Of a DNA stretch of 43,955 nt, positions 36,601 to 37,437 are shown one piece after another. Source of the DNA: a virus. Each line of letters starts with the position of its first letter. Positions within the stretch are counted from its first letter, which is position 1. The DNA is taken from UHGV virus genome UHGV-0152227; one strand, written 5' to 3'. A program made the position numbers and the translations under genes. The notes below the pieces were generated by a model, which saw nothing but the letters and a program-made list of their open reading frames with translations, was not told the origin of the DNA and ran no database searches.

Positions 36601-36663
36601 TCACCCATAAGGTAACAAAAATCAAGGATAGTTACCTATGAGGTGCATTTACCTGTTGGGTAA
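36601..36663. promoter_or_regulatory. Immunity-region operator cluster: three sites between the Cro-like and repressor genes
   Basis: TCACCCATAAGGTAA (36601-36615), TTACCTATGAGGTGC (36632-36646), TTACCTGTTGGGTAA (36649-36663). Confidence 0.65.
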
Positions 36664-36718
36664 TATTGCTTTAAATTGAATCATCTACTGATTCATATAT
36701 GAGGCGATTTTCCAGAAA

Positions 36719-37303
36719 ATGAAAAGTATCCAGGACGTCCGCAGGCAAAATCTCAACGACTTGATCGACCGTGAATTCAATGGTGTTCAGACGCGGATGG
36801 CAGAAAAACTTGGAACTCAGGCAAATCTGGTAAACCGCTGGGCTCTTGGCAAGAAGGTTATCGGCGACCAGGTTGCACGAAAAATTGAAGCTGCCGCCAA
36901 TAAACCCCGTAACTGGCTTGATATCGATCGCTCGCTTTCTCAGGAAGGTTTTCAGCCTGTCGGCCCGAGCGATATAGGTCAGCTGGCGGCTCACAACCTG
37001 GAACGCTGGATGAGCGAAAGCCGCGACCTTTCAACGCAGGGAAAACTACACCGCGCATCCGGCGTCGCCCAGGTGACAATCAGCCGCCTGTTAAACAATG
37101 AGGTCAGCGTTTCCATTTCCACCCTGGAGAATGTTGCATCCGCATTCGGGCGTCACGGCTATGAATTACTGATTCACCCGCACGACCCTGCGACCATCAA
37201 CTATGATCGCTCGCGCTACGCATTGTTACCCGAAACCGAGAAAGCAAAGATCGAAAGTTACATTGAATTTGTCATCAACCAGAACGAAAAAAACAAACAA
37301 TAA
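36719..37303 (+). CDS. Prophage repressor, tandem XRE-type HTH domains, no S24 peptidase domain
   Basis: Two HTH segments (QTRMAEKLGTQANLVNRWALGK; LHRASGVAQVTISRLLNNE); no Ser/Lys autopeptidase motifs; divergent from Cro-like gene. Confidence 0.7.
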   Translation: MKSIQDVRRQNLNDLIDREFNGVQTRMAEKLGTQANLVNRWALGKKVIGDQVARKIEAAANKPRNWLDIDRSLSQEGFQPVGPSDIGQLAAHNLERWMSESRDLSTQGKLHRASGVAQVTISRLLNNEVSVSISTLENVASAFGRHGYELLIHPHDPATINYDRSRYALLPETEKAKIESYIEFVINQNEKNKQ

Positions 37304-37325
37304 AATCATATTTTTCAGTAAGTAA

Positions 37326-37350
37326 GCCGCCTTCTGGCGGCTTTTTTATT
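37326..37350 (+). terminator. Rho-independent terminator after the repressor gene
   Basis: GCCGCC-ttct-GGCGGC followed by TTTTTTATT. Confidence 0.8.
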
Positions 37351-37360
37351 GCCTATTCGA

Positions 37361-37437
37361 TTACCTAATGGGTAATTTTTTTAACTCATATCTATTGACA
37401 TCAAACCAGATACGCATAATTATTACCTCAACGGTAA
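37361..37437 (+). promoter_or_regulatory. PL-like early promoter with two flanking operators
   Basis: Perfect palindrome ATTACCTAATGGGTAAT (37360-37376), TTGACA at 37395-37400, operator TTACCTCAACGGTAA (37423-37437). Confidence 0.6.

Follow-up and report, generated by a model that had tools for sequence, protein, structure and literature searches.

A recurrent palindrome as the probable operator of the Rep repressor at dispersed transcription units of a Uetakevirus prophage

The Rep-Ant lytic switch of phage SPC32H is reportedly the subject of Kim & Ryu 2013 and Kim et al. 2016, with the PDB entries 5D50/5D4Z. The prophage studied here, contained in a window of 43,955 nt (the whole stretch of DNA that was analysed), is a Uetakevirus of the phiV10/TL-2011b/ε15 group and resembles SPC32H in its genus, its operator motif, its Rep homologue, an Ant with 88 % identity and the LexA box in the ant promoter. 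Its Rep, however, is only ~42 % identical to that of SPC32H, and it carries in addition an RNA-controlled BRO-N antirepressor and extra cargo slots.

In phage P1, the C1 repressor is said (Lobocka et al. 2004) to have operators scattered along the genome, one of which, Op51, precedes the c4-icd-ant (immI) operon. P1 and the window phage are alike in that one primary repressor faces many scattered units, one of which consists of a C4 RNA followed by an antirepressor. The P1 operators are, however, asymmetric 17-mers, C1 is unrelated to Rep, and the window phage, unlike P1, integrates and also carries isrK.

The mycobacteriophages L5 and Bxb1 possess stoperators, repressor sites that occur by the dozen away from the immunity region. 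These are asymmetric, oriented with transcription and located within operons, whereas the sites described here are palindromic, placed at promoter/terminator boundaries and almost all intergenic (13/14). Palindromic form and unit-boundary positions rule out the stoperator class for them, although the sites at terS and behind the cro-like gene could likewise block read-through transcription.

With phage lambda, the window shares the order cro, OR, repressor, OL/PL and early-left, as well as adjacent operators and an oligomeric repressor. Lambda CI acts at OL and OR only, and the late genes come under control by way of N and Q; in the window, by contrast, there are operators in front of internal early, packaging and accessory units as well. 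Moreover, Rep would be inactivated by an antirepressor and not, like CI, by RecA-stimulated cleavage. A further counterpart is the isrK-orf45-anrP locus of Gifsy-1 (PMC4825925), which likewise combines isrK and its terminator with a downstream processed RNA and an antirepressor expressed via read-through; the Gifsy-1 isrK promoter is active in lysogens, whereas the window locus has an added Rep operator.

Distribution of the palindrome in the window and in related phages

Across the whole window, TTACC-N5-GGTAA occurs nine times exactly (starting at 8192, 9259, 26711, 29856, 34300, 34362, 36649, 37361 and 37423), against 0.01 occurrences expected from shuffled sequence. With up to one mismatch allowed, 14 sites are found against 0.71 expected, the additional ones starting at 7812, 10509, 29838, 36264 and 36601. 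Non-coding DNA makes up 9.5 % of the window in our curated gene map, and the sites outside genes comprise all nine exact copies and four of the five with one mismatch. Matches with two mismatches behave as background (28 of 30 are coding), with OR2 at 36632 among the exceptions. The site at 10509 lies within a gene, has one mismatch and is at chance level; we regard it as probably fortuitous. Counting OR2 in, we arrive at 14 likely operators at nine loci. A matrix scan returns 14 sites of at least 12.7 bits, followed by 10509 with 10.9 bits and a remainder of at most 8.8 bits; this matrix was trained on the sites themselves and is circular for them, but it still reveals no hidden extra sites. 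In phage lambda, which served as a control, there is no exact copy and a single one-mismatch site in coding DNA, which corresponds to chance.

The preliminary description of this DNA had proposed ten or more sites, and its count is borne out by the nine exact copies, the 14 with at most one mismatch and the 14 likely operators; the excess over shuffled sequence and the clean gap in matrix scores agree with it, as do the intergenic position of 13 of the 14 sites and the chance-level result in lambda, which bear on density in coding regions and in unrelated genomes. Its list was incomplete in that four good sites (29838, 29856, 34300, 34362) were absent. The weak copy given as 7814-7828 in truth occupies 7812-7826, and the copy at 36264-36278, present as described behind the Cro-like terminator, has one mismatch (GGTAC).

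The -10 hexamer ends at the first T of TTACC at 37423, 9259, 8192 and 34300. Promoter-like matches in the operator regions are not enriched over shuffles, and individual promoter calls are consequently weak. Between sites, the 5-bp spacers and the flanks vary while both half-sites are kept. Judged by sequence comparison, the palindrome is very probably the binding site of the main repressor of this ε15/phiV10-type prophage. A second conserved palindrome, AACC-N6-GGTT, adjoins many of the operators.

At orthologous loci, the motif recurs with matching spacings in TL-2011b, phiV10, Tyrion, BUCT711, ε15 and SPC32H. The 62-bp pairs, the 18-bp pair and the 17+31 triple are kept in members from E. 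coli, Enterobacter, Klebsiella and Salmonella: the OR layout in Tyrion, Klebsiella BUCT711, ε15 and SPC32H, the terS tandem in TL-2011b, phiV10, Tyrion, ε15 and SPC32H, and the OL/PL spacing of 62 bp in relatives, with 63 bp in Klebsiella. The full palindrome persists even where identity in the DNA around it has fallen to about 60-77 %. The sites at tRNA/gp49_66, ant/tailspike, terS, mid-early, OL and OR are genus-wide backbone features.

The GenBank record of ε15 (AY150271.2 / NC_004775.2) labels seven sites as 'repressor', a prediction and not an experimental result; they include terS (12-27), the divergent gp50/gp3 region (2931-2947) and the gp19(ant)/tailspike region (19895-19911). The motif is shared with the window (for example TTACCAAAACGGTAA), and the annotated loci correspond to those found here at terS, gp50/gp3, gp19(ant)/tailspike, the OL side and the internal early promoter, whereas the OR sites and the second operator of the mid-early pair are unmarked in the ε15 record. 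No operators are annotated in the phiV10, TL-2011b and ZX5 records or in the ZX5 paper. The dispersed-operator layout is hence largely known, genus-wide and not peculiar to the window phage. New here is the variable cargo behind conserved operator-bearing promoters, namely isrK/C4 with BRO-N and the YafO-like cassette, for neither of which ε15 has a counterpart; also new is the operator at 8192, at -51..-37 of the isrK promoter.

Rep, the immunity region and the dispersed loci

The prophage repressor Rep (194 aa; 36719-37303, plus strand) matches SPC32H Rep over its full length (PDB 5D50; phmmer E=4e-42, query residues 1-190). A DNA-binding domain forms its N-terminus and a tetramerisation region its C-terminus, with an HTH_3-like domain in between (Pfam HTH_3, residues 106-147); the Pfam search gave HTH families only and no S24 peptidase domain (Peptidase_S24). 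In an alignment of five Reps, the N-terminal helix NLVNRW is unchanged among four lineages at an overall identity of only 42-78 %, and this constancy matches the invariance of the TTACC-N5-GGTAA half-site, which supports the view that Rep reads the palindrome. No PRM-like promoter could be placed for rep.

The immunity region has the classic operator layout that had been proposed for it, with a triple between the cro-like gene and rep and a pair that brackets a PL-like promoter. The triple, OR, is formed by 36601-36615 (one mismatch), 36632-36646 (OR2, two mismatches) and 36649-36663 (exact), with centre spacings of 31 and 17 bp. Its first site is overlapped by a leftward candidate promoter of the gene for the Cro-like regulator (76 aa; 36334-36564, minus strand; phrog_35 'transcriptional repressor', E=5e-12), the first gene of the rightward early unit. 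The OL/PL module (37361-37437, plus strand) comprises the operator 37361-37375, the promoter TTGACA (37395) N17 AATTAT, which ends at 37423, and the operator 37423-37437; the operator centres are 62 bp apart. Directly after the terminator of the cro-like gene (36293-36312) lies the operator 36264-36278 (minus strand), ~60 bp upstream of the start of a promoter conserved in an alignment of six phages (TTGATC N17 AAAATA) that serves the gp40-like/replication unit.

A second 62-bp pair is present in the mid-early module (34300-34376, minus strand), where a weak terminator is followed by the operator 34362-34376, the promoter TTGATT N17 TTTAAT, the operator 34300-34314 and the GAGGTAAATC-ATG of a DUF1064 gene. 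An alignment shows this module in seven phages, irrespective of whether the downstream gene is DUF1064 or RuvC. At terS (29838-29870, minus strand), the exact operator 29856-29870 and the one-mismatch operator 29838-29852 are 18 bp apart and lie between the terminator 29890-29907 and the terS start codon (29835). Over neither the terS sites nor the post-cro site did we find convincing sigma-70 -35/-10 elements.

In the divergent tRNA/portal region (26649-26725), the operator 26711-26725 covers the -10 of the plus-strand promoter TTGACA (26689) N17 TACCTT, which reads toward tRNA-Arg(UCU) (27048-27124) and a Phage_gp49_66 family gene (27323-27679; both plus strand). SPC32H carries this tRNA at the corresponding position. 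Exactly 62 bp from this operator, at 26649, a perfect half-site TTACC lies in a block that is near-invariant among seven aligned phages, upstream of the minus-strand gp3-like/portal operon. Although TTGACAT and AATTATTACCT are common to both, the promoters at 26689 and 37395 are not the near-duplicates they had been taken for: their -35-to-operator distances are 16 and 22 nt, a difference of 6 bp.

The induction switch (7860-8160, plus strand) had been missed in the preliminary description. It encodes, next to the tailspike gene, a small Ant (85 aa; 7903-8160, plus strand), a homologue of the SPC32H anti-repressor that is 88 % identical to SPC32H_020 ant (window 7903-8157) and has the same genomic position. 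Its promoter, TTGTTA N17 TATCGT, holds within the spacer a perfect LexA box (CTGTATAAATATACAG; 7866-7881), which is conserved in six phages. The one-mismatch operator 7812-7826 of the divergent tailspike/ant region, whose orthologue is exact in ε15, SPC32H, Tyrion and Klebsiella, has its centre ~76 bp ahead of the point where ant transcription is inferred to start, so that it would not occlude the ant promoter.

The second antirepressor module (8164-9186, plus strand) was correctly recognized earlier as carrying an operator in the leader of a BRO-N antirepressor; this leader, however, also holds two RNAs. Behind an upstream promoter (TTGCAA N17 TATATT, 8164-8192), which has the operator 8192-8206 at +1, follows a second one, TTTACA (8208) N17 TG-CATAGT (8236). 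The latter fits the 5' end (8243) of the isrK RNA (8243-8319, with its own terminator; Rfam 63.5 bits, full length), and the operator is then at -51..-37. Next come the C4 antisense RNA (8344-8427; full-length match to Rfam RF01695, 66 bits with a gathering threshold of 45) and the BRO-N antirepressor gene (8476-9186; Bro-N Pfam E=1e-19; phrog_130 'anti-repressor Ant'). Owing to the -51..-37 position, repression at 8192 is not certain, and a protein bound there could either repress or activate the isrK promoter. The lambdoid homology of the isrK locus begins at ~8249, downstream of operator and promoter, which marks the Rep operator as a local addition. A calculation of C4/BRO-N duplexes gave long, unrealistic structures and was left out of our conclusions. 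Simple occlusion fails both at 8192 (-51..-37) and at 7812 (about -76 of the ant promoter).

In the adjoining cargo slot (9231-10033, plus strand), the promoter TTGCAG N17 TACTAT has the operator 9259-9273 at -10/+1 and precedes orf59 (9334-9513) and a YafO-like gene (9488-10033). The palindrome thus does sit at promoters of accessory units, as had been suggested, on -10/+1 at 9259 and, for the upstream candidate promoter, at 8192, and over the -10 at 26711. The YafO-like gene scores marginally with PF13957 (YafO_toxin; 25.8 bits against a cut-off of 25, E=1.2e-5), and RefSeq labels a homologue as YafO family toxin; orf59 matches no Pfam family, and hence no YafN-type antitoxin, but only phrog_6685 (function unknown). 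Of 5,426 complete E. coli genomes, 328 contain the promoter-operator piece 9190-9278 and 61 the whole cassette; the piece is common to many prophages with differing cargo.

Proposed control by Rep and competing explanations

We consider it likely that the palindrome is the operator of Rep, with 14 sites at nine loci, and that the units behind these sites are freed together on induction. From the motif, its enrichment, positions and conservation, and from the homologies of Rep, Ant and the LexA box, we infer Rep binding at each site, the sign of regulation and looping. Rep, an SPC32H/ε15-type repressor, would be a tetramer that RecA does not cleave. In the lysogen, it would occupy the 14 operators at the start of nearly every transcription unit beginning after a terminator: OR, OL/PL, post-cro, internal early, the terS leader, tRNA-Arg/gp49_66-portal, tailspike/ant and two variable-cargo promoters. 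Six of the loci have an operator lying across a sigma-70-like -10/+1, suggesting repression by promoter occlusion. DNA damage would take LexA off the small ant promoter, and the Ant then made would disassemble Rep and free all units at once, including the RNA-controlled BRO-N antirepressor, the tRNA and the YafO-like cassette. In phage ZX5, over-expression of the identical repressor lowered holin and endolysin transcripts by >99.9 % (PMC9782041).

The exact 62-bp pairs (~six helical turns) would fit one tetramer holding both sites with its two DNA-binding pairs. Passages on SPC32H Rep in PMC9638917 and PMC9986798 describe a DNA-bound tetramer in which the DNA-binding pairs are formed across dimers, with a looping-type tetramerisation domain; a passage of PMC9986798 describes the DNA-holding mechanism of the Rep tetramer as lacking extensive characterisation. 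Base-pair-exact pairs offer a ready substrate for testing how this unusual tetramer holds DNA.

The strongest competitor, which we nevertheless regard as rather unlikely, assigns mixed functions to the sites: OR, OL and the mid-early pair would be classical operators, and some dispersed sites would do other jobs as looping anchors, as roadblocks behind leaky terminators (terS, post-cro) or as an activating site. Rep at 8192 could keep isrK/C4 on in the lysogen, and C4 would then block BRO-N translation, just as c4 blocks ant translation in phage P1. The isrK 5' end at 8243 fits the promoter 8208-8236, and the resulting operator position of -51..-37 is close to that of lambda OR2 relative to PRM; yet, relative to the upstream promoter 8164-8192, the operator lies at +1, which would still allow net repression. 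The terS and post-cro sites come after terminators and have no clear promoters, and 7812 lies far upstream of the ant promoter, but all these sites are palindromic and placed at unit boundaries, whereas stoperators are intra-operon and of a single orientation. The activity of the Gifsy-1 isrK promoter in lysogens (PMC4825925) also accords with mixed functions.

It is distinctly improbable that, in lytic growth, the Cro-like protein or some other phage regulator is the main reader of the dispersed sites and that Rep is confined to OR/OL. Half-site and N-terminal helix of Rep are co-invariant across lineages, the 62-bp pairs suit a tetramer with two DNA-binding pairs, and the ε15 annotators gave the sites to the repressor; these points have to be set against the conservation of the cro-like gene beside OR and the second conserved motif near many sites, which points to other regulators acting there. 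Cro-type proteins usually share the operators of the repressor, as in lambda and P22, and this, too, would suit a Cro-like reader. That the repeats beyond OR/OL are by-products with no protein bound, originating from a recombination-spread promoter cassette or from promoter and ribosome-site sequence (TACCTT as -10, GAGGTAA as Shine-Dalgarno), is most improbable: several sites do overlap -10-like or SD-like sequence, and the piece 9190-9278 is common to many prophages with differing cargo, but flanks and 5-bp spacers vary while both half-sites persist, the full palindrome is conserved amid about 60-77 % identical DNA, and the spacing is constant to the base pair.

Building on common control by Rep, one may tentatively envisage for the genus a flat two-layer control instead of a lambda-type cascade, although its three parts are somewhat unlikely to hold together. 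First, the tetrameric repressor would directly gate almost every unit via phase-locked operator pairs, and conserved cargo slots would make the horizontally acquired YafO-like cassette, tRNA and second antirepressor lytic-phase by position alone. Second, the LexA-to-small-Ant trigger would be locked in by the Rep-gated, isrK/C4-controlled BRO-N as a commitment latch. Third, AACC-N6-GGTT would be the mark of a further regulator, responsible for the timing of the late, tailspike and lysis operons; candidates for the protein that binds it are the gp49-like regulator (29957-30298), the PerC-like protein (40051-40350) and the Cro-like protein.

Accessory genes inside and outside the putative regulon

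The lysis operon of the window has no operator, and Rep consequently does not gate every unit directly. Operators are likewise absent from the conversion-type accessory genes, which encode a hexapeptide acyltransferase-like protein, a TraT/Gly-zipper lipoprotein and a DUF5384 protein. For the operator-bearing accessory genes, silence in lysogeny is plausible. The resulting map of the Rep regulon is concrete and testable for ε15/phiV10-type prophages of E. coli: BRO-N, the YafO-like cassette, tRNA-Arg and gp49_66 are likely silent in lysogens, whereas the acyltransferase-like, TraT-like lipoprotein and DUF5384 genes are likely expressed. This split matters for predicting prophage effects on their hosts, EHEC and APEC strains included.

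The accessory genes had been proposed to be induction- or infection-phase functions rather than lysogenic-conversion genes. The operator-less state of the conversion-type genes fits two such classes, while codon use leaves the part concerning the tRNA undecided. AGA codons, counted to ask whether tRNA-Arg serves lytic genes, come to 8.8 per 1000 codons for the early genes, to 4.0 for the late ones and to 14.3 for the operator-less cargo.

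Recurrence and placement of the operator palindrome

The observation of an operator palindrome, the 15-bp TTACC-N5-GGTAA, is confirmed and extended by our analysis. Nine exact copies occur in the 43,955 bp of the window against 0.01 expected from dinucleotide-preserving shuffles, and 14 copies with at most one mismatch against 0.71; the repetition noticed in the preliminary description is hence real. According to a curated gene map, which draws on the ORF list, the annotation of relatives and family searches, 9.5% of the window is non-coding, and this small share holds all nine exact sites and four of the five one-mismatch sites. 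Two-mismatch matches behave as background (28 of 30 are coding), one exception being OR2 at 36632. When a scoring matrix built from the operator sites themselves was scanned over the window, 14 sites stood apart with at least 12.7 bits, followed by 10509 (10.9 bits) and a remainder of at most 8.8 bits. The motif does not reach a similar density in coding or unrelated DNA: phage lambda, taken as an unrelated control, contains no exact copy and a single one-mismatch copy, which is coding. The initial list of sites was correct in the main; its weak copy begins at 7812 instead of 7814, and four sites (29838, 29856, 34300 and 34362) had been overlooked.

Operator loci and their conservation in the genus

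The operator triple OR (36601, 36632 and 36649; 31 and 17 bp apart) lies between the cro-like gene and the repressor gene rep, and the OL pair (37361 and 37423, 62 bp apart) flanks the early-left promoter PL, TTGACA-N17-AATTAT, whose -10 ends with the T that opens the second operator (37423). The post-cro site at 36264 is found directly 3' of the cro-like terminator; the start of a conserved TTGATC-N17-AAAATA promoter follows about 60 bp downstream. On the minus strand, after a weak terminator, the mid-early pair (34362 and 34300, 62 bp apart) flanks TTGATT-N17-TTTAAT, and its second operator provides the GAGGTAA ribosome site. The terS pair (29856 and 29838, 18 bp apart) occupies the gap from a terminator to the terS start codon. 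The operator at 26711 covers the -10 of TTGACA-N17-TACCTT, directed toward tRNA-Arg(UCU) and the gp49_66 gene; exactly 62 bp away, a perfect half-site (26649) is embedded in a near-invariant block preceding the gp3-like/portal operon. This promoter and PL had been regarded as near-duplicates (26689 and 37395), and they do have TTGACAT and AATTATTACCT in common, yet their -35-to-operator distances differ by 6 bp. Three further operators lie between tailspike and ant (7812, centered about 76 bp upstream of where ant transcription begins), before the isrK/C4/BRO-N module (8192, at +1 of TTGCAA-N17-TATATT) and in a cargo slot (9259, at -10/+1 of TTGCAG-N17-TACTAT, upstream of orf59 and a YafO-like gene). 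A second promoter-like site (TTGGTT-N17-TGTAAT) is present downstream of the 9259 operator, and the orf59/YafO-like unit has a hairpin, ACGGATT…AATCCGT, in its 5' leader (9274-9302). The window scan, compared with the gene map, placed no operators at the lysis operon, the hexapeptide acyltransferase-like gene (3979-4830), the TraT/Gly-zipper lipoprotein gene (722-1228) or DUF5384 (1244-1783).

At no more than one mismatch, the 15-mer occurs 15 times in ε15, 18 times in SPC32H, 15 times in Tyrion and 13 times in Klebsiella BUCT711, with about 0.4-0.7 expected in each; TL-2011b and phiV10 carry 10 and 8 exact sites, respectively. The operators reside at orthologous loci across the genus, with spacings constant to the base pair: 62 bp for the OL pair in five lineages (63 bp in Klebsiella), 62 bp for the mid-early pair in all compared lineages, 18 bp for the terS pair across relatives, and 17 and 30/31 bp within OR. 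These spacings are kept despite repressor identities down to 42-45% and surrounding DNA of about 60-77% identity. In agreement with the invariant half-site, all four repressor lineages keep the N-terminal Rep helix NLVNRW unchanged. As the mid-early module (34300-34376) is kept with either DUF1064 or RuvC downstream, it belongs to the phage backbone and not to the downstream gene. Immunity diversity in the genus seems to be very small, which is unusual for temperate phages. Half-site and recognition helix are the same in four of four lineages. In ε15 (26882), SPC32H (26960), Tyrion (28568) and BUCT711 (12620), a one-mismatch operator also immediately precedes the integrase gene; since the window stops 50 bp upstream of int, an equivalent site would be outside our view.

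Dispersed repressor sites have already been described, as a prediction, for the type phage: the ε15 GenBank and RefSeq records contain seven 'protein_bind: repressor / lysogeny' features, upstream of terS (12-27), in the gp50/gp3 region (2931-2947), in the gp19(ant)/tailspike region (19895-19911), on the OL side (32479-94, 32554-70 and 32616-32) and at the mid-early promoter (35906-22), all of which coincide with motif matches. The phiV10 and TL-2011b records hold no operators, and the ZX5 study did not map them (PMC9782041). To these known sites our analysis adds the cargo slots, the link of the isrK/C4 antirepressor module to Rep and the phase-locking of paired operators; the dispersed arrangement is analogous to the P1 C1 regulon.

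Repressor, antirepressors and exchangeable cargo

The window represents a temperate podophage of the genus Uetakevirus (ε15, phiV10, TL-2011b, ZX5, SPC32H), with an immunity region 97-98% identical to those of ZX5, TL-2011b and phiV10. Its 194-aa repressor Rep (36719-37303) matches those of phiV10 and ZX5 with 100% identity, and the crystallised Rep of SPC32H is a homologue over the full length (5D50; E=4e-42); a domain search detected HTH domains but no S24 peptidase. Among E. coli records, 15 carry this repressor, all with Rep at 99% identity or above. The 85-aa antirepressor Ant (7903-8160) is 88% identical to that of SPC32H, whereas the two repressors share only about 42%. The spacer of the ant promoter contains a perfect LexA box, CTGTATAAATATACAG (7866-7881), which is kept in six aligned genus members; this LexA box/small Ant switch was absent from the preliminary description. 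In SPC32H, Rep is reportedly not cleaved by RecA, and ant is said to be kept off by LexA.

According to second-hand descriptions, the Rep tetramer is disassembled by Ant and its DNA-binding pairs form across dimers (PMC9638917); the C-terminus is described as a looping-type tetramerisation domain, and the way in which Rep represses as a mechanism that "has not been extensively characterized" (PMC9986798). In ZX5, over-expression of the identical repressor abolished holin and endolysin transcription, and a BRO-type antirepressor favored lysis (PMC9782041).

Complete isrK (8243-8319, after ant) and C4 antisense (8344-8427) RNAs precede the BRO-N antirepressor gene, a module of the same type as P1 immI and Gifsy-1 isrK-anrP (PMC4825925). 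Related isrK/C4 copies exist in more than 240 phage records, mostly of Stx phages. Homology to the Stx-phage copies starts at about 8249, downstream of the 8192 operator; the RNA module is therefore common to different phage groups, and the operator-bearing promoter is local to the genus. Of 5,426 complete E. coli genomes, 328 carry the promoter-operator piece 9190-9278, but only 61 have the entire YafO-like cassette. In strain DS566-1 this piece stands upstream of an unrelated 210-aa gene, in a 7-kb accessory region with four exact operators, and in BUCT711 a DUF2335 gene follows the post-ant operator. Judged by these comparisons, such loci are conserved operator-bearing slots with swappable cargo.

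A proposed one-repressor circuit and a second motif

That Rep binds all predicted operators is the best-supported reading, and the Cro-like protein probably binds them as well during lytic growth. By occlusion, Rep would shut off PR and PL, the internal early promoter, the tRNA/gp49_66 unit and the promoters of the cargo, with one tetramer presumably holding each 62-bp pair. The earlier interpretation, in which one repressor silences early genes, an antirepressor, a toxin-like cassette and the tRNA unit together, is partly supported: occlusion fits the promoters just named and is doubtful at 8192, terS, post-cro and 7812. The isrK 5' end fits a promoter with TTTACA at 8208, N17 and TG-CATAGT at 8236, placing the 8192 operator at -51 to -37; Rep bound there might act as a repressor, or might even favor the synthesis of isrK/C4 in the lysogen. 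The promoter scan revealed no clear promoter at the terS and post-cro sites, which may serve instead as a read-through block or loop anchor. The 7812 operator does not overlap the ant promoter, which makes sense for a repressor that has to leave its own inducer unblocked. In operator-bearing regions, promoter-like matches show no enrichment relative to shuffles; single promoter calls consequently rest on conservation, not on the scan.

A second conserved motif, AACCAnATAnG, occurs seven times in the window (0.29 expected; six of seven intergenic), at 3863-3873 (minus strand), 7772-7782, 8151-8161, 26659-26669, 34320-34330 and 37404-37414, and as a variant at 36247-36257 (minus strand). It adjoins or falls inside operator-bearing promoters and also precedes the gp3, tailspike and lysis operons; phiV10 and SPC32H have it as a full palindrome (AACCATATATGGTT) at the lysis and post-cro positions. 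The motif may be the site of a second regulator. On the minus strand, about 55 bp immediately upstream of the gp3-like/portal operon (…CATATGTGGTTAAATTGGTAATAATTTAATTGCGTACGGAG…; 26621-26680) form a block that is near-invariant in an alignment of seven phages with diverged flanks, and a related CATATGTGGTT-N5-GGTAA precedes the tailspike gene; the block looks like a late-promoter or activator element. An Rfam sRNA-Xcc1 match (RF02221; 41771-41860, plus strand; 64 bits, gathering score 53) lies just upstream of an ORF6N-domain gene (41902-42621).
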